DNA of 11,084 nt. It comes from Promethearchaeota archaeon. Lineage in GTDB: Archaea; Asgardarchaeota; Lokiarchaeia; Sigyniarchaeales; SOKP01. Under the pieces are notes generated by a model, which ran no database searches, had not been told where the DNA came from, and was given only the letters and a program-made list of their open reading frames with translations. Of this stretch, positions 1-9,433 are shown piece after piece. The stretch is taken from positions 1-11,084 of the forward strand of contig JAEOTZ010000048.1 of NCBI GenBank assembly GCA_016839585.1, read 5' to 3'. The translations under genes were made by a program, and so were the position numbers. Position 1 is the first letter of the stretch. Each line of letters opens with the position of its first letter.

Positions 1-763
1 AGCCAGAAATATCAGGTAAAATTATATCTAATAGGATTAACCTTGGAGTGCTTGTCCTCAATTCCTCTATTCCCTTCGTTCCACTTACTACCCCTTTACA
101 GGTATAGCTTTTACTTTCAAAATAGCTGGTTAACAGCCTGATTGTGGCTAAATCATCTTCAATTAATAGGATATCATATTGAGTTTGAACTTCCTCTACC
201 TTAATTTTATCGAGAATGTTAATGATTTTATTTTCAAGAAGCATGCTTTGGTCAAATATATTTTTAATAGTTGATAAGACATCCTCTTCTAATTCGTCTT
301 TATAATTTTCAAGAAGTAGTTGACTAAATCCCTTAATACTGGTCAAAGGTTCCTTTAATGCATGTGAAATATTAGCAATTGTTTTTTCATCCATTTTATG
401 TATACCTGAGCTTATTAAGTTCGTTTTTTGCTCAATAAAATGATCAACACTATCTCTAATTAGCTTCGAAATAGTAGTATAATTATGATCTCTTATAAAT
501 TCTTGCCATTTCTCTTTTGTATCCTCAGCTACATATAAAGAAATTCTCTCCTTATCCCTATCGTAGATTTTTTCGCCTTTCAACCATTTTTTAAACCCTT
601 CAGTTATCTTTTCTTGCCAAATTGCGTATTTACCTGTCTCATCTTCATATTTTTTCATCAATTTATTAGCTTTTTCACTTTTCAAATCAAGTTTGGCAAT
701 TTCTTCATCGGACATTATCTGTTTGTTGTTATTTCCTTCCTCATTCTTTGAAATATGGCTCAT
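1..763 (-). CDS. Partial CDS (C-terminus runs off the window): signal-transduction protein with N-terminal 'ETGKYAIW' module + RHH-like domain + HisKA(DHp)-like bundle + receiver (REC) domain; paralogue of 988..1827
   Basis: Missing from the ORF track because it has no stop in the window. Manual translation from ATG at 763: MSHISKNEEGNNNKQIMSDEEIAKLDLKSEKANKLMKKYEDETGKYAIWQEKITEGFKKWLKGEKIYDRDKERISLYVAEDTKEKWQEFIRDHNYTTISKLIRDSVDHFIEQK...NISHALKEPLTSIKGFSQLLLENYK...YDILLIEDDLATIRLLTSYFESKSYTCKGVVSGTKGIEELRTSTPRLILLDIILPDISG. Open for 254 codons. H-box His at 362-364; REC acidic pocket EDD and phosphoacceptor LLD are visible. Confidence 0.9.
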   Translation of the reverse strand, partial: MSHISKNEEGNNNKQIMSDEEIAKLDLKSEKANKLMKKYEDETGKYAIWQEKITEGFKKWLKGEKIYDRDKERISLYVAEDTKEKWQEFIRDHNYTTISKLIRDSVDHFIEQKTNLISSGIHKMDEKTIANISHALKEPLTSIKGFSQLLLENYKDELEEDVLSTIKNIFDQSMLLENKIINILDKIKVEEVQTQYDILLIEDDLATIRLLTSYFESKSYTCKGVVSGTKGIEELRTSTPRLILLDIILPDISG

Positions 764-987
764 CTCTTAGTCGTATAATTTAATCCTTTCAGAATTACAG
801 GATTTAATTCATCAGTCTATGACTTATGTGGTAAATTATTCCAAATTTTTTTTATAAAAATTATATTTTACAGTATTTTCTTTATCATTTTTATTAATTT
901 TTTATCTCTTATTAAATCTTTTTGACTATAATGTTAATTTGACGTGATCAAACAATTTTAAAAAAGAAGGAATTCAATTTAGAAATT

Positions 988-1827
988 TCAATTTTTCACT
1001 TTCTTATCGTTTAAAAGAGTAAATATTGGTTCAAAATCTGAGAAATTAAACGGTTTTAAAATGTATCCATTAGCCTTTCCTAAATTTTTTTCTACTTCAG
1101 ATGCAGCTATCGCGGTTAGGAAATAAACAGGAATATCCTTATATTCATTATCAGATTTAATTGTTTCACAGATTTTATATCCATCCAAATCGGGTAAAAT
1201 TATGTCTAATAATATTAGTTTTGGAATTGCATTACCCAATTCTTCTAATCCTTTAGAACCACTCACAATCCCCTTGCATCTAAAACCTCTGCTTTCAAAG
1301 ATCTGCTTTATTAATCGAATTGTAGCAAGATCATCTTCAATTAATAAAACATCGTATTCTGTTTCTACTTTAATATTATCTAGAAAGCTAATAATCTTAT
1401 TTTCAAGAAGTATACTCTGGTCAAAAATATTTTTTACAGTATCTAATATATGATCGTTCAATTTATCCTTATAATTCTCAAGAAGCAATTGTGAATATCC
1501 TTTTATTGATGTTAGCGGCTCTTTTAAGGCGTGTGAAATGTTAAATACTTTAAGAGAACCAATTTTAAATAAATCACTTTCATACTGATCCTTTTTGGAT
1601 TCTATAAAGAATTCTACAGCTTTCCTTATTAATTTAGAAATTGTTGGAGTCTCATTATTTTTTATATACTTTAACCATTTTTCCTTTGTATCCTCTGATA
1701 CATATAACGATATTCGCTCCTTATCCCGTAGATAGATTTTATCTCCTTTTAACCACTTCTTGAATCCTTCTGTTACAAGTCCCCGCCAAACTGCATATTT
1801 TCCTGTGCCTTTTTCATATTGGCTCAT
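988..1827 (-). CDS. Response-regulator-like protein: 'GKYAVW' module + RHH-like domain + HisKA(DHp)-like bundle + C-terminal REC domain, no HATPase domain. True start is probably upstream, at ATT 1950
   Basis: H-box-like ISHALKEPLTSIKGYSQLL (His at 1531-1533). Complete REC signature: LLIEDD, LILLDIILPDLDG, IPVYFLTA, YILKPF. RHH-like pattern RISLYVSEDTKEKW...TISKLIRKAVEFFIE (1600-1716). Collinear with the 1..763 paralogue. Confidence 0.9.
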   Translation of the reverse strand: MSQYEKGTGKYAVWRGLVTEGFKKWLKGDKIYLRDKERISLYVSEDTKEKWLKYIKNNETPTISKLIRKAVEFFIESKKDQYESDLFKIGSLKVFNISHALKEPLTSIKGYSQLLLENYKDKLNDHILDTVKNIFDQSILLENKIISFLDNIKVETEYDVLLIEDDLATIRLIKQIFESRGFRCKGIVSGSKGLEELGNAIPKLILLDIILPDLDGYKICETIKSDNEYKDIPVYFLTAIAASEVEKNLGKANGYILKPFNFSDFEPIFTLLNDKKVKN

Positions 1828-1956
1828 TAATTCTTTGATTTTATCACTATTTAAATCTATGATTTCCTCATTTATCTTAATATTTTCATCTATATTACTA
1901 TTATTTGGCTTTTCCGTTGCTTTCCGTGTATCTTTCTCGTTATTATTAATTAAAAA

Positions 1957-1964
1957 CTCACCTT
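1957..1964 (-). promoter_or_regulatory. Shine-Dalgarno-like AAGGTGAG, 6 nt upstream of an in-frame ATT (1950-1948) of the REC gene
   Basis: The minus strand reads AAGGTGAG-TTTTTA-ATT AAT AAT AAC GAG. GGTGA is the typical archaeal SD core, and the frame is open from here to the stop at 988. Confidence 0.6.
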
Positions 1965-2013
1965 AAAAGAAGAGGTAGTTAGTTTTATTACCACAAGTGA
2001 TTTTTTTTTAAAC

Positions 2014-2030
2014 ACTTTTATAATAAAAGT
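2014..2030. promoter_or_regulatory. Perfect 8-bp inverted repeat ACTTTTAT-A-ATAAAAGT containing a TATA-like TTATAAAA (minus strand) upstream of the REC gene
   Basis: Read directly from the sequence, about 65 bp upstream of the proposed ATT start. The AT-rich context lowers its significance. Confidence 0.35.
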
Positions 2031-2164
2031 TGCCTTTTTTAAGTTTTTACACAAACAAAATAGTTAGAAACAATATTATAAAACAAGGTTTAGTTTATAT
2101 TAAAAAAAGCTATGAAATAAAGTTTAAAAAAACATGAAGTTAGAAACTAATTGCTATAACGGAC

Positions 2165-2533
2165 TTAATCGCCTTCTAATTTACTTCCACAATGAGAACA
2201 AAATTCAGAATCTAACGCAAATAATTTTTTCCCACATATTGGACAAAAGCTTGACACTGCTGAATCTTCTTGAGGTTGAATTTTTACCTCCTTTTGAGAC
2301 AATTCTTTCCTTTTTTTACGATAATACATAGAATCTTCGATTACTTCAACAAAAAAGGCAATTATACCACCTACTATTAAAAAAATAATTCCACCAACAA
2401 ATAAATAAACATTTTTCAATAGAAAAAAATTCCAGATAAGAACCAGTATAAAGAATATTATAAGTATACCAATAATTCCAGTAATTATATGCTTTGCTTT
2501 TACCTTTTCAGAATTTTTCATTTTTAAAACCAA
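2165..2533 (-). CDS. Small membrane protein (2 TM helices) with C-terminal zinc ribbon
   Basis: Two hydrophobic stretches (IITGIIGILIIFFILVLIWNFFLL; VYLFVGGIIFLIVGGIIAFFV), a basic linker, then CPICG...FCSHCGSKL. Start is TTG 2533 or ATG 2521. Confidence 0.8.
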   Translation of the reverse strand: MVLKMKNSEKVKAKHIITGIIGILIIFFILVLIWNFFLLKNVYLFVGGIIFLIVGGIIAFFVEVIEDSMYYRKKRKELSQKEVKIQPQEDSAVSSFCPICGKKLFALDSEFCSHCGSKLEGD

Positions 2534-2684: not shown

Positions 2685-3332
2685 TTGAAATTTGAAGTTT
2701 TAAAGGAAAGTGATATTAATCGACTAGCACGTGATTCACATTGGGTAGGGCTAGGAACTAAGAAGGATCCTTATGTTATTGACTCAAAAGAGTTTTTGCC
2801 AGTTCGGTTTCGTATAAAAAATAGCAAATTACATATTCTTATAAGAAATTGTAAATTTGAGTTTATTTCTTTGTGGAGATCGCAAAACATAACGATACAG
2901 GATTGCTCATGTGATATTTACTTTCATTATTGCCATGAAATTCACATTGAAAATTGTAATATTCCTACGTTTAGTTTCGATTATTGCTATAATAATGTCC
3001 TTAAAAATTGTACAATAGATTATATTGATAACCAGTTTAGTAGAGGAAATCTTTTTGAAGGTATTCAAACTTCTGAGGATTACAAGAGGATTATAATTGA
3101 GGGCGGAACATTAGAAGGGGCCTATAAAATATTTTTTAGAATAATTCCAGTGATATTATTAATAGCCATAACTTACCTTATTACCCAAGATTTTATTAGA
3201 GAAAACCTTCTCTTGTTAATTTTATCATTTGTAGGGGTGCTAATGTTATTTATCACTTACTTATTTATTATTATTCACTATTACAAAAATAAAAGGCGCA
3301 TATCTAAATATCCTTTAAATTCAATTAAGTAA
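2685..3332 (+). CDS. Putative right-handed beta-helix (pectin-lyase-fold-like) repeat protein with two C-terminal TM helices
   Basis: GxGTxxDPYxI motif (GLGTKKDPYVI) followed by I-x-I-x-N/D-C-type repeats (ILIRNC, ITIQDC, IHIENC, NVLKNC) and two hydrophobic C-terminal segments. TTG start. Confidence 0.7.
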   Translation: MKFEVLKESDINRLARDSHWVGLGTKKDPYVIDSKEFLPVRFRIKNSKLHILIRNCKFEFISLWRSQNITIQDCSCDIYFHYCHEIHIENCNIPTFSFDYCYNNVLKNCTIDYIDNQFSRGNLFEGIQTSEDYKRIIIEGGTLEGAYKIFFRIIPVILLIAITYLITQDFIRENLLLLILSFVGVLMLFITYLFIIIHYYKNKRRISKYPLNSIK

Positions 3333-3778: not shown

Positions 3779-4669
3779 ATGGTTGTAGAAATAAAACCTC
3801 AGGCGTCCTTTTGTCCAGAGTGTGGGGGTGGCACGATCTCAGTCCATCAGAGAGGGGAGATAGTATGTCGGCAATGCGGCTTGGTTATAGCAGAAAAAGA
3901 AGTAGATATTTCCCATAGCGGAATAAGGGCGTATTCTAAGCAAGAAAAAGACAAAAAAGAAAGAACTGGATGTCCAATTTCGATTTTGATGCCAGATATA
4001 GGCTTAAGTACGATTATCGATCGATCAAAAATTAAGAATCCAGATTTAAGGCGAGCAGCGAAGTGGAATACGCACTTATCATGGGAAAAGCGGAATATGC
4101 TTATTGCGATAACTGAGTTAAAAAGAATTGGTGGGAATTTAAATTTTCCAGAGCGTGTAAAAAAAGCAGCTGTTCGATTATATAAGGAAGTGTTTAAGAA
4201 GAATTTATTACGCGGAAGGTCTATTAATGGTATGATCGCGGCATGTGCATATTTTGTATGTAAGCAAGAAAGGGTTCCGATAACTCTTCAAGAAATTTTA
4301 GATGAGGCATCTATTAATGATAATATTGTAAAGAAATGCTATAAAATTTTAGTAAGAGAATTGAACTTAAAATCTCCTCATGTTGATCCAGTTTCGCTTA
4401 TTCCAAGGTTTTGTGCCGACTTAGGGTTAGACATCAATATAGAAAAGGAAGCAATTAAAATATTGAAGAACTTTATTGAGAGGACATCGATTTGCGGTAA
4501 AGATCCGAAAGGTTTATGCGCTGGAGCGATATATTTGGTTGCCAAACTTAAAAATCATAAGGTTAGTCAGAAGGATATTTCAAAAATTATCGGTGTTACA
4601 GAAGTAACATTACGTTCAAGGTATAAAGAGCTTTTAAAAAATATTAGTTTTACTTTTCAGGCATCCTAA
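3779..4669 (+). CDS. tfb: Transcription initiation factor IIB (TFB), probable paralogue with divergent B-reader
   Basis: N-terminal Zn ribbon CPECG...GEIVCRQCGLVI, ERTG motif, two cyclin repeats (LLRGRSI..., GKDPKGLCAGAIY) and C-terminal HTH VTEVTLRSRYKEL. Confidence 0.97.
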   Translation: MVVEIKPQASFCPECGGGTISVHQRGEIVCRQCGLVIAEKEVDISHSGIRAYSKQEKDKKERTGCPISILMPDIGLSTIIDRSKIKNPDLRRAAKWNTHLSWEKRNMLIAITELKRIGGNLNFPERVKKAAVRLYKEVFKKNLLRGRSINGMIAACAYFVCKQERVPITLQEILDEASINDNIVKKCYKILVRELNLKSPHVDPVSLIPRFCADLGLDINIEKEAIKILKNFIERTSICGKDPKGLCAGAIYLVAKLKNHKVSQKDISKIIGVTEVTLRSRYKELLKNISFTFQAS

Positions 4670-4705: not shown

Positions 4706-6037
4706 CTAAAAACCTTCTTCAGATGGGATGCTATACTTTCTACATATTTCTAAATATTGTTCTTTTGGGAGAGAATTTGGATACATATTGATTAAACTTA
4801 AATTCGGAGGGAATAAATTAAAATCTTTAATTTCAGAAATGGGATTATTATTTAGTTTCAACCATTCTAGATTAGATAATTTATTAAGACCTTTAAGTTC
4901 AGTTATGAGATTGTCATTCAGCTCTAAATGCATTAAATTTATGAGCTTTTCGAGCCCTTTTATTTCAATAATTTGATTTCCATTTAAATAAAGTTCTTTT
5001 AAATTTATTAAATTCTCAAATCCTTTTATCTCTGAAATGAGGTTGTTGTTTAAATCAAGTCTTCTTAAATTAGTTAGTTTTTCAAGTCCTTTTATTTCAG
5101 TTATCTGATTCCCATGTAAATAAAGTTCTTCCAATTTTGATAAATTTTCAAGGCTATTAATTTCTCTTATTTTATTCTTACTCAAATGTAAAATGCGCAC
5201 AGTTTTAAGTTTATTAAATCCTTCTATTTCATTGATATCTCCTATATCCTTGTTAATAATTGCTAAAACTGTATTATAAACTTTAAATGTTTGACCTTTG
5301 TACAAAACTCTCTCGATTATGAGAGGAGGATATATTTTAGTGAGATCAGGATATTTTTCTTTTATCCAAATTTTAAAATCATCAGTTATAATCCGATTTT
5401 GAATTGCAGGTTTGCGAGTTTCAGTCTCAAAACGTTTCATTTCTGGAGGTTTTTCAGGATAATACCAAATCTCTTTTTTGGGGCGAATTTCATCATATTC
5501 TAGATTATGTAAAATAATGAATCCAACACTATCTTTAATTAATTGAGTAAATGTAAAATAATCATATTCTCGCATAAATTTTTGCCATTTAGATTTCATT
5601 TCTTTGGAGATTATTGTATGAACATTTGGCTTGTCTCTATCGTAAATTTCCTCACCTAATAACCACTTTTTAAAACCTTCGGTTATTTTATCTTGCCAAA
5701 TAGCATATTTTCCTGTTTCATTTTCGAACATTTTAATTAATGACTTAACCTTTTCACTATTCAAATCAATATTGGCAATTTCTTTTTCAGTCATGATGTG
5801 AAATTTTTCTCTTTTGCTATTTAGAATTGAAGCTGATTTCTCTTTGATAAAATAATAAACAGAATTACTAATTAATTTAGAAATAGATGGGTAATTATGA
5901 GTTTTAATAAAATTTCGCCATTTTATATGTGTTTCATTTGTTATTTGAGCCGAAATCATCATATTATTAGAATCATAAAGGATATTATCACTTATCCAAA
6001 TTCTTGATCTATTAGATTTTTTTGGTTTTTCTTTCAT
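4706..6037 (-). CDS. Leucine-rich repeat (SDS22-like) protein with N-terminal tandem RHH-like domains and 'ETGKYAIW' modules
   Basis: C-terminal 22-aa LRRs (IKGLEKLTNLRRLDLNNNLISE etc.). The N-terminal half is homologous to the N-termini of the two REC proteins (ETGKYAIWQDKITEGFKKWLLGEEIYDRDK; KWRNFIKTHNYPSISKLISNSVYYFI). Confidence 0.9.
   Translation of the reverse strand: MKEKPKKSNRSRIWISDNILYDSNNMMISAQITNETHIKWRNFIKTHNYPSISKLISNSVYYFIKEKSASILNSKREKFHIMTEKEIANIDLNSEKVKSLIKMFENETGKYAIWQDKITEGFKKWLLGEEIYDRDKPNVHTIISKEMKSKWQKFMREYDYFTFTQLIKDSVGFIILHNLEYDEIRPKKEIWYYPEKPPEMKRFETETRKPAIQNRIITDDFKIWIKEKYPDLTKIYPPLIIERVLYKGQTFKVYNTVLAIINKDIGDINEIEGFNKLKTVRILHLSKNKIREINSLENLSKLEELYLHGNQITEIKGLEKLTNLRRLDLNNNLISEIKGFENLINLKELYLNGNQIIEIKGLEKLINLMHLELNDNLITELKGLNKLSNLEWLKLNNNPISEIKDFNLFPPNLSLINMYPNSLPKEQYLEICRKYSIPSEEGF
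4832..5227 (-). repeat. Six 66-bp coding repeats (22-aa LRR units)
   Basis: 396 bp = 6 x 66, with consensus IxGLxxLxxLxxLxLxxNxIxE. Confidence 0.85.
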
Positions 6038-7271: not shown

Positions 7272-7949
7272 TTAACTATTATTACATAAAAAAAGTCTGA
7301 TTCCACATTCATGACAAAATATTGAATCGGATTCTAATTCCATCCCACATCTTTCACAAGAATTATGGTGATGCTCACAAACAATGCTATTTTTTTCATT
7401 AATAGACTTCATTTTAATTAATTTTTTAAATGGAAAGGAACATATAGTTCCAATACTAGTAGTTATCCCTAAAATTCCGTATAAAATCCACATTAAATCA
7501 ATAGAAAACGGATCGCACTTAATAGTGTAACTTATAGTTCCTGCAGTAGTAGATCTAATAAGATGCAATCCAGAAGAATGAACGTGATATTTTCCTAAGT
7601 CATTAAGCTTTCCTCTTGAAACATAAAAAGTTTCAAGAAATTCTTCCATAAGCTGATTATAATCTAGTCCCCACTCTGATGACATCTCTGAAGCTATTCG
7701 TTGATAATATTCGAGTGTACTTTTTTTAATAATTAACAAACTAACGTCACTTGTAGATCTAAAGCTCCATTCAATCACATTTAATACTTTCCTTTCTAAT
7801 TCGAAATCTGGTTCATTTTCTCCAGAGTCTTCATGAAAAGCAAAATTCATTACAGTCTCTTGATTAGATAATACTGCTATACATCCAATTATTATTGTTG
7901 TTAATATTGGGAATACAAAAGTCTTTTTCTTAATTTTTTCTCCTAACAC
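7272..7949 (-). CDS. Membrane protein: N-terminal signal/TM, extracytoplasmic domain, TM, C-terminal zinc ribbon
   Basis: KKKTFVFPILTTIIIGCIAVL N-terminus, second hydrophobic segment LMWILYGILGITTSIGTICSF, and C-terminal CERCG...FCHECGIRL. Confidence 0.75.
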   Translation of the reverse strand: MLGEKIKKKTFVFPILTTIIIGCIAVLSNQETVMNFAFHEDSGENEPDFELERKVLNVIEWSFRSTSDVSLLIIKKSTLEYYQRIASEMSSEWGLDYNQLMEEFLETFYVSRGKLNDLGKYHVHSSGLHLIRSTTAGTISYTIKCDPFSIDLMWILYGILGITTSIGTICSFPFKKLIKMKSINEKNSIVCEHHHNSCERCGMELESDSIFCHECGIRLFLCNNS

Positions 7950-7971: not shown

Positions 7972-8571
7972 TTATTTTAGCATACTCCCACAATCGTGGC
8001 AAAATCTTGAAAACAAATCTACTTCAGTTTCACAGGAATGACAAACTAAAAAATTTTGTTTTACTTGTTGAGGTATTTGAATTGAATTATTTTCCAAATT
8101 TCGGGTATTGTTTTTATTATGTACATAAATTAAAGCTTCTGATTTTCTTGAAATTCTCTTAATATTACAGTTAGAAATTAATATCTGATCCCCAGAGAAT
8201 GCAAATAATTTCTTTATTTTTGAATTAGTGAATTTAATCTTATGTACTTGTTCTAACCTCAATTGCTTTAGTATATCAACATTATGGACCGAAATCATCG
8301 AGCATTTTCCTAAACCCAAGCATTAAATTCTAGCTTTCGAGATTCTCACATTTTTACACTGACGTAAATAAACAGCTTTTAAGGAGAATCCACTAAATTT
8401 AATATACTTACTTGAATCAGAAATTCTAACTTCATAAGATTCTGTAGAAAACTGGTCTTTAGTACTTAACAAATAGGGATCATCAATTGTTCCAGCTCCA
8501 GTTATTTCTATTTTAAATTCAAAATAACGGCTTGAATTCCATAAAGATCCACTAGAGATTTCGATATTCAA
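7972..8571 (-). pseudogene. Beta-helix-like + zinc-ribbon gene interrupted by one in-frame TAA (8325-8323); joins ORFs 8323..8571 and 7972..8319
   Basis: Both ORFs share one frame: ...AAA GCT AGA ATT TAA TGC TTG GGT TTA GGA AAA TGC..., and the repeat register continues across the stop. The N-part has GAGTIDDPYLL like the 2685..3332 paralogue; the C-part ends CHSC...FCHDCGSMLK. Confidence 0.75.
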
Positions 8572-8704: not shown

Positions 8705-9433
8705 TTAATTCTGATGACCTGTTCTTCGAGCAGCTATTTGCCCGACCTTTCTTCCTGGAGGAGCATTTCTGCTCGTTGTTGTAGGTTTGTGAGGAGATTG
8801 CTTAGCTCCTCCGCCATAAGGATGAGACACCGCGTTCATGGCGACTCCTCGTACAACAGGCCATTTTTTTGCTTTTGATTTTTTATAGTGAAATTTATTC
8901 CCTGCTTTGAGGAAAGGTTTGTCTATACGACCTCCACCAGCAACTACACCAACGGTGGCTAAGCAGGACTCATTAATCCATTTGGTTTTCTTTGAACGAA
9001 AAAGCACTTCAACTTTATTACCAGATTTATTTCTTACTATTGCTGCAACACCAGAAGCTCTAGCGAATTTTCCACCATCTTGAGGTGTTGATTCGATATT
9101 AAATACAAGAGTGCCTAAAGGCATTTTTTTAAGAGGTAAGATATTTCCTACACTTACAGTTTGACCATATCCTTTTTTAGATTGAATAAATTCTTCTCCT
9201 TCATATACTCCTTCCGGAGGAAGCCACAGTCTTTTTTCAGCATCATCAAACTGGATTCGTGCTACTGGAGCTCCTCTTCCTGGAGAATGAATAAATTCTA
9301 TTATTTTAAATTTCAATAATTTCTCCTTTTGTTTGAATGGACGATATTTAACTTCTCCTGCATGTCTATGACTTGGAGATCTGAAACCAAGAACACCACG
9401 TCCTTTTCTTTGTGCTAAGATTCGTTTTCCCAT
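8705..9433 (-). CDS. rpl2: 50S ribosomal protein L2 (uL2), archaeal type
   Basis: MGKRILAQRKGRG start, HSPGRGAPVA, DGGKFARASG, GGGRIDKPFLKAG, WPVVRGVAMNAVSHPYGGG, PPGRKVGQIAARRTG. Confidence 0.98.
   Translation of the reverse strand: MGKRILAQRKGRGVLGFRSPSHRHAGEVKYRPFKQKEKLLKFKIIEFIHSPGRGAPVARIQFDDAEKRLWLPPEGVYEGEEFIQSKKGYGQTVSVGNILPLKKMPLGTLVFNIESTPQDGGKFARASGVAAIVRNKSGNKVEVLFRSKKTKWINESCLATVGVVAGGGRIDKPFLKAGNKFHYKKSKAKKWPVVRGVAMNAVSHPYGGGAKQSPHKPTTTSRNAPPGRKVGQIAARRTGHQN

Follow-up and report, generated by a model that had tools for sequence, protein, structure and literature searches.

A conserved tandem pair of archaeal proteins joining a predicted ribbon-helix-helix domain to a HisKA hairpin and a receiver

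Archaeal two-component systems are thought to work mostly through protein-protein contacts, and few of their response regulators possess a DNA-binding output. In the regulator NikR, metal binding at the C-terminal domain controls the ribbon-helix-helix (RHH) domains. The two genes described here, A and B, occupy the first 1.9 kb of the 11,084-base contig C34, the whole of which is referred to below as the window, in an Asgard archaeal genome of 28% G+C. They encode paralogues in which an unnamed N-terminal motif of ~45 residues, an RHH domain, a HisKA/DHp hairpin and a receiver (REC) succeed one another in a single chain. A and B are real regulators, conserved and lineage-specific, and DNA binding by them is probable. 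Our preferred account, held with restrained confidence, is that they are RHH transcription factors controlled by Asp phosphorylation, with the DHp as dimerization core and orphan kinases as the source of the signal.

The order RHH-HisKA-REC has been recorded before. Galperin et al. (2018, J Bacteriol, PMC5847659) reported it in Lokiarchaeum sp. GC14_75, in one sentence and without analysis, and named marine sediment metagenome as the source of further copies; the LCGC14 marine-sediment proteins P0029 and P0040 are ~75% identical to A. The Lokiarchaeum architecture has the same domain order as A and B and comes from the same lineage. The claim of an earlier note on this DNA that the architecture had not been described is thereby contradicted, though it is neither characterized nor a curated family. 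The placement of a DNA-binding domain first and a receiver last, which the note took to be unusual, likewise has precedents in archaea, in FilR1 (winged helix-turn-helix (wHTH)-DUF1724-REC) and LtrR (HTH-REC). The 2018 paper also describes archaeal "HisKA, no HATPase" proteins, raising phosphotransfer or phosphatase roles, and a 2023 survey entered one such Lokiarchaeum protein merely as "HisKA; REC". Full-text searches of the literature turned up no further paper in which a receiver is combined with an RHH as output. Since the architecture itself was on record in 2018, the surprise it holds is limited; what is new here, and not mentioned in that paper, is the ancient and fixed tandem pair, the atypical H-box with its dispensable His, the shared N-terminal module, the synteny with a TFB gene and the narrow, one-family range.

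Both open reading frames (ORFs) lie on the minus strand and share one domain order, as the earlier note had it and as the ORF list and Pfam confirm. Their products are 66% identical, and their parts are as follows.

988-1827, minus strand: gene A, complete N-motif-RHH-DHp-REC response regulator, the TFB-side copy, 279 aa from the ATG at 1827 (Pfam)
1729-1827, minus strand: N-terminal motif of A, β-hairpin GKYAVWRG followed by the basic helix FKKWLKG (AF2 model, pLDDT 88-91)
1588-1728, minus strand: ribbon-helix-helix domain of A, residues 34-80, strand KERISLYV and two helices (Pfam, structural alignment)
1372-1566, minus strand: HisKA/DHp helical hairpin of A, with H99 in the atypical H-box S-H-A-L-K-E-P (Pfam, model)
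991-1356, minus strand: receiver of A, with E164-D165-D166, D208, T238 and K258-P259 (Pfam, model, Foldseek)
2-763, minus strand: gene B, paralogue of 254 aa, open at its 3′ end, REC interrupted by the contig end (ORF list, Pfam)
557-709, minus strand: N-terminal motif of B
416-556, minus strand: RHH of B
200-403, minus strand: DHp of B
2-181, minus strand: REC of B

The architecture is not a product of chance, because the same four-part protein recurs as 136 ORFs in ~70 related genomes. Pfam Response_reg (PF00072) covers residues 160-264 of A (E 2.6e-17, 63.4 bits, cut-off 30.2) and residues 198-254 of B (E 1.4e-7), where the domain is incomplete at the contig end. The REC of A is modelled at pLDDT 80-92 with five strand/helix pairs, as in a (βα)5 fold, and Foldseek returns CheY, DivK, RR468 and RpaA at E 1e-10 to 1e-8, with TM values of 0.8-0.9 on the target for the first three; the full-length model retrieves receiver matches only. 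As far as can be read from sequence, the complete copy A has every REC phosphorylation residue, in agreement with the earlier note, and the DD, D, T and K positions are kept in ~134-135 of the 136 orthologues.

Pfam HisKA (PF00512) matches residues 96-145 of A (E 8e-7, 29.5 bits) and residues 127-183 of B (E 1.5e-8, 35 bits), in both cases above the cut-off of 26.9. No Pfam match to HATPase_c is found in A or B, and in the model of A, in which the two long DHp helices have low pLDDT as a monomer, ~9 residues connect DHp helix 2 to REC strand 1. The note's statement that the catalytic ATP-binding (CA) domain is absent is borne out by this. Its RHH, DHp and REC assignments are upheld as well, the latter two by Pfam scores above cut-off and the first by its modelled fold. 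The best NCBIfam matches are hybrid kinases, in two separate stretches corresponding to DHp and REC. A hybrid kinase that had lost its CA domain by frameshift or misassembly was considered as an origin of the two genes and ruled out, since all 136 ORFs repeat the same compact architecture.

Canonical HisKA kinases carry the pattern H-E/D-x-x-T/N, in which autophosphorylation and phosphoryl transfer depend on the acidic residue at H+1, and phosphatase activity on the T/N. The H-box of A and B departs from this pattern. It is of the type H-A/T-L-K-E, with the His in 136/136 orthologues, A, T or S at H+1 in 135 (D in the remaining one) and Glu at H+4 in every copy. Among diverged clusters with the same architecture (26 representatives), the His is replaced in 10 (by Y, Y, F, F, L, V, R, K, E and N), and none of the 26 has lost the receiver Asp. 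Where the His is present, H-D/E has been retained in several clusters as well. Family-wide, these sequences indicate that the receiver is indispensable and the His dispensable. Because the His is exchanged with the Asp kept, and because the acidic H+1 is absent, the evidence on the DHp leans towards a role in dimerization over one in His phosphotransfer. The linker between RHH and DHp is the least conserved stretch and is modelled as a coil at low confidence, which renders a rigid helical relay, with the DHp as a "relay stalk", doubtful.

The same residues bear on two rival explanations. In the first, H99 would be a true phospho-site. Its phosphoryl group would come in trans from the CA domain of a different kinase, or from a receiver through back-transfer, and would pass to D208 of the same protein or to other receivers; the proteins would then combine a Spo0B/ChpT-like transfer point with DNA binding. 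A well-kept H-box with its His in all A/B orthologues, the retention of the His in a third paralogue, a genome devoid of Hpt domains in which kinases outnumber receivers, a DHp closely resembling those of the resident kinases, and the phosphotransfer or phosphatase roles raised for "HisKA, no HATPase" proteins (PMC5847659) are all compatible with such a phosphorelay. It is opposed by the replacements in the diverged clusters, in which the Asp persists, by the lack of the acidic H+1 in A/B, and by the absence of a hybrid kinase that could provide the upstream receiver of a classical relay; the invariance of a residue at 60-90% identity is, moreover, little proof of its function. We consider the phosphorelay unlikely.

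In the second, the CA-less DHp would be a decoy that pairs or competes with the DHp of true kinases, or a built-in phosphatase that dephosphorylates its own receiver, in either case tuning signal lifetime. HisKA domains can have phosphatase activity towards receivers (cited in PMC5847659), the DHp sequence is near those of the resident kinases, and DHp and REC are a mere ~9 residues apart. However, the H+4 phosphatase position is Glu in all 136 orthologues instead of T/N, there is no sign of heteromer formation, and a decoy would have no need of an RHH domain, which together make this explanation very unlikely.

For the RHH domain at the N-terminus the evidence from sequence is weak but consistent, and that from modelled structure is good. 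When the RHH segments of 44 family members were scanned singly, RHH_1 was matched in 25 (best E 6e-4) and RHH_3 in 10 (best E 2e-4), with RelB, NikA-like, RHH_5 and DUF6290 also among the Pfam matches. A profile of the segment searched against PDB sequences has the CopG regulator 7by2 as its best match, over the full length at E 0.22, and the homologue P0111 is publicly annotated as CopG/Arc/MetJ. Modelled with 89 aligned sequences, the N-terminal 95 residues reach pLDDT 85.9 and form, in order, a helix, a β-hairpin, a short helix, an extended stretch at KERISLYV and two helices. Superposition of model residues 48-95 by VIA-align gives NikR (1q5v_A; Z 5.8, 1.4 Å over 46 residues), ParD2 (Z 5.7) and the complex of the PutA RHH with its operator (Z 5.5, 1.1 Å over 44 residues), followed by PrpA, TacA, CopA, MazE, AmrZ, ORF56, omega, Arc, RelB and SvtR. 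NikR, ParD2, PutA-RHH, Arc, omega, CopA and MazE have Z 4-5.8 and rmsd 1-2 Å; for NikR, ParD2, PutA RHH and PrpA the values are Z 5-5.8 and 1.0-1.6 Å, with 40-46 residues superposed. The top 50 are RHH proteins nearly throughout. The Z values are modest, as is normal for a domain of 46 residues, and the argument lies in the uniformity of the match list. A Foldseek search with the N-terminal model yielded no significant E-value, and good geometry only with ParD RHH antitoxins. The segment 1600-1716, on which the earlier note had made its RHH assignment depend, does model as an RHH.

In the strand KERISLYV the pattern R-x-S-x-Y (R38, S40 and Y42 in A) is invariant in A and B and mostly kept family-wide, and the flanking Lys/Arg residues are invariant in A/B. 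The predicted DNA-reading strands of A and B are identical, and the two proteins therefore probably read the same operators.

The N-terminal motif, GKYAIWRG...FKKWLKG, is confidently modelled within the N-terminal 95 residues as a hairpin and a basic helix. Its profile has no match among PDB sequences at E up to 10, a member-by-member comparison with Pfam gives scattered matches, all at E > 0.01, and the ESM Atlas, with a best score of 0.82, gives nothing of use. Among 1.84 billion representative proteins, the 95-residue N-terminus matched 105 clusters only. In the 104 module-bearing clusters that were scanned, REC is present in 30, HisKA in 21, a Ras/Roc/Arf GTPase in five, LRR (leucine-rich repeat) in one and NosD/β-helix in one; HATPase_c is present in none. 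The motif sits C-terminal to Ras/Arf/Roc-type small GTPase domains in P0168, P0187, P0215 and P0223, the first of which has the order Arf-motif-REC, without RHH or DHp. It also occurs in a further gene of the window:

4706-6037, minus strand: LRR protein of 443 aa, with two RHH-like segments, two or three copies of the N-terminal motif and ~six leucine-rich repeats (LRR_4, E 6e-30)

The RHH-like strands of this protein are without the basic residues found in A/B. A weak copy of the motif (E 1.9e-4) was also seen within a 1,720-aa open frame on contig 76 of G000, at ~8810-9016 (L006).

These other carriers bear on a third rival explanation (non-DNA-binding), in which the RHH-like segment and the N-terminal motif would serve protein-protein contacts, for example docking to a small-GTPase partner. 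That the motif is found without an RHH in Ras/Arf GTPase fusions and beside a REC alone, that the LRR protein has RHH-like strands devoid of basic residues, and that the RHH scores remain under the Pfam cut-off can all be read in this way, which would also fit the prevailing view of archaeal two-component signalling through protein interactions. However, the modelled fold is close to those of DNA-bound RHH domains (the PutA-operator complex, and NikR), and the outward-facing strand residues R, S and Y together with the flanking Lys/Arg are invariant, as for contacts with bases and backbone. We give this explanation little credence.

The homologues of A form more than 120 clusters with 69-94% identity, all with HisKA and REC and 277-344 aa long, and a scan of species genomes yielded the 136 copies at ~70 loci. 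The gene order is the same in nearly every locus: GatE-GatD-L2-(radical SAM)-TFB, of which the TFB has the opposite strand, followed by copies 1 and 2 of the pair. Downstream of the pair (in L008 and other loci) lie genes for a 164-aa protein of unknown function, DUF2110, a profilin-like protein, proteasome alpha, SBDS and Rrp4. The TFB gene of the window is

3779-4669, plus strand: TFB gene, one of the genome's 8 TFB paralogues, with a divergent orientation to A in almost every locus

A tree of the 136 copies splits by position, with all 65 TFB-proximal copies, including A, in one clade (support 1.0), and all 65 distal copies, including B, in the other, together with 6 singletons (support 0.86). 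The duplication is therefore older than the sampled diversity, and both copies have been retained; A and B are ancient paralogues kept together. A recent tandem duplication is excluded by the clean position-wise split.

The pair has a narrow range. At E <= 1e-8 the N-terminal 95 residues are found in 62 of the 68 genomes that were sampled from the window's GTDB family, vs none of 233 genomes across 29 other families of the phylum. By profile search, 102/102 genomes of the same family are positive, 7 of 10 genomes of a sister family are matched (strongly in one only, and not at all in a complete 4.4-Mb genome), and the single genome sampled from a third family of the same order has one strong match. 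Homologues are labelled Promethearchaeota or Lokiarchaeota in public records. An Asgard-wide range, to which Thor, Hod, Hermod and Odin labels in some of these records would point, was rejected, since almost every copy falls within a single family once genomes are sampled by GTDB rank; the range is that of one Lokiarchaeial family and not of Asgard archaea as a whole. A complete archaeal TFB-A-B locus (L064, DATKTW010000106.1) is found on a contig labelled Nanopelagicaceae bacterium MAG, which is probably mis-binned. A separate observation concerns P0125, a 241-aa fragment at a contig end with the N-terminal motif, RHH and H-box, which past the conserved TSIKG continues as a canonical full HisKA and then as the apparent first part of an ATP-binding domain (NLLDNG). 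The fragment represents a rare relative with a CA domain, or else an assembly chimera with its junction at the conserved H-box.

A census of the genome identifies 11 ORFs with HisKA and HATPase_c, none of them hybrid, and no Hpt domain. The H-box region of the A/B DHp is close in sequence to these kinases. The ~6 solid receiver proteins comprise A and B, a third RHH-DHp-REC paralogue, two that are CheY-like and one in which an unknown C-terminus follows the REC. A, B and the third paralogue are the only ones with a recognizable DNA-binding domain. The third paralogue, of 281 aa and with the His kept, is encoded on contig 87, tail-to-tail with a histidine kinase gene and adjoining an Arf-like GTPase gene (neighbourhood L004:1991-3223, minus strand). 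Three of the ~6 receivers have this architecture, and it is probably through them that the 11 kinases mainly act on transcription.

As a transcription factor under Asp control, either protein would be built around the DHp, which would form the usual four-helix bundle and hold two chains, and the pairing of the chains would let two RHH strands form a DNA-reading ribbon. D208 of the receiver would be phosphorylated by one or more of the orphan histidine kinases of the genome. Phosphorylation would alter the packing of the REC on the DHp, or drive REC-REC contacts between dimers, and operator binding would thereby be switched on or off, in the way that metal governs the RHH domains of NikR. A and B would probably act as homodimers or as an A:B heterodimer on the same operators, the most likely targets being their own promoters and the adjoining, divergent, lineage-specific TFB paralogue.

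Several observations weigh against this account. RHH_1 scores below the Pfam gathering cut-off in both proteins (E 0.028 and 14.8 bits vs 20.5 in A; E 0.35 in B), and in the full-length monomer model the RHH-DHp part has a low-confidence pLDDT of 38-62. The His is present without exception in the 136 A/B orthologues, which is more than a purely structural role requires, and it may still be of functional weight there. The neighbours of the pair are housekeeping genes, and no locus has a kinase gene within ~6 kb of it. The synteny of TFB and pair lies inside a generally conserved housekeeping block, and gene order alone may explain it. Finally, the operator-like motif TTGTGTR, which relates to the elements upstream of A described next, occurs in the window at 4 sites vs 1.8 expected, which is not significant as 23 of 200 shuffles score as high.

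Two features precede the ATG of A:

1828-1962, minus strand: open in-frame extension above the ATG of A, 45 codons without ATG, GTG or TTG
1981-2060, minus strand: promoter-like block upstream of A, conserved in ~30 related loci

A Shine-Dalgarno-like AAGGTGAG lies at 1964-1957, ahead of TTA at 1953-1951 and ATT at 1950-1948. The start assigned to the close relatives P0001 and P0002 (94% identity) coincides with this TTA, and the helix encoded by the extension can be aligned to B and to the LRR protein. In the family the start is at the conserved Met in 126/136 copies, and metagenome contigs covering the start of A contain strain variants and nothing decisive for the start codon. The extension may be translated from a non-canonical start.

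The promoter-like block holds TTGTGTA (2054-2048), a TATA-like CTTTTATTATAAAA (2029-2016) and TTGTGGTAATAAAA (1996-1983), and the ~30 loci share, upstream of A, a TTGTGTACAAA or TACACACAAA element, a TATA-like AACATTAAATAATAGTTCTTTTATTA block and a ATTAGTGGTACAAAAAT element. In the related genomes TTGTGTA is the top enriched 7-mer upstream of A, at 16x background, and in 18-19 of 65 loci A and B are both preceded, at a fixed distance, by a related pattern. Scans with promoter and terminator consensus sequences gave chance levels (24 sites vs 26.9 expected), and a repeat search in the AT-rich spacers gave short, unconvincing pairs only. The block is a weak candidate for a core promoter with operator-like elements, the operator evidence being weak because the genomes compared are related.

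Of 49 genomes sampled from the GTDB family of the pair, 44 have an orthologue of the TFB gene with at least 75% identity; outside the family its best match is 47-49% identical. Pair and TFB thus have a common phyletic range, with the divergent spacer between them. In a more far-reaching scheme, A and B would be obligate partners in a heterodimer, or phosphorylation would drive them into a dimer of dimers, and this complex would couple the orphan kinases to expression of the divergent lineage-specific TFB. This would be a two-component-to-basal-factor switch of one Lokiarchaeial family, in which the N-terminal motif would be a docking module tying in Ras/Arf-type GTPases and LRR proteins; we regard this scheme as rather improbable.

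The conserved genes are interspersed with genes for small zinc-ribbon membrane proteins and for short β-helix-like proteins, whose presence varies from one related locus to the next. In the window, two of them are inserted in the interval from TFB to gene A. The small genes of the window are

2165-2533, minus strand: small gene of this group
2685-3332, plus strand: small gene of this group
7272-7949, minus strand: small gene of this group
7972-8319, minus strand: small gene of this group
8323-8571, minus strand: small gene of this group

If the preferred account of Asp-controlled RHH transcription factors is right, the family would give one Asgard lineage a direct path from receiver phosphorylation to DNA, with an RHH as output instead of a helix-turn-helix and with a kinase dimerization bundle recycled as a scaffold. 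The fixed place beside a lineage-specific TFB suggests a link between signalling and the choice of basal factor in relatives of the eukaryotic ancestor. The A/B proteins are small, soluble-looking and highly conserved, and hence biochemically tractable.

Among known systems, NikR is the best structural match of the RHH model. As proposed for A and B, a sensor domain at its C-terminus governs DNA binding by the N-terminal RHH of the one chain. Nickel is sensed in NikR by an ACT-like tetramerization domain, whereas A and B have a phospho-accepting receiver and would oligomerize through a DHp bundle; with an identity of 15%, the analogy is one of logic and not of family membership. FilR1 and LtrR are archaeal two-component transcription factors that, like A and B, have the DNA-binding domain N-terminal and the receiver C-terminal, but they have a (winged) helix-turn-helix and no DHp, and their homology to A/B is limited to the REC. 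Hybrid histidine kinases and the archaeal "HisKA, no HATPase" proteins share the succession of HisKA hairpin and REC. Unlike hybrid kinases, A, B and the 136 syntenic orthologues lack a CA domain and a sensor domain, have an RHH instead, and are non-acidic at H+1 in 135 of 136 cases. In Spo0B and ChpT a DHp-like bundle with a His likewise occurs without ATP-dependent autophosphorylation, and a transfer role is possible in A/B as well. Spo0B and ChpT, however, keep a CA-like α/β domain at the C-terminus and have neither REC nor DNA-binding domain; A and B have no such CA-like domain, which sets them apart from the Spo0B/ChpT type, and in both of them the REC directly follows the DHp.

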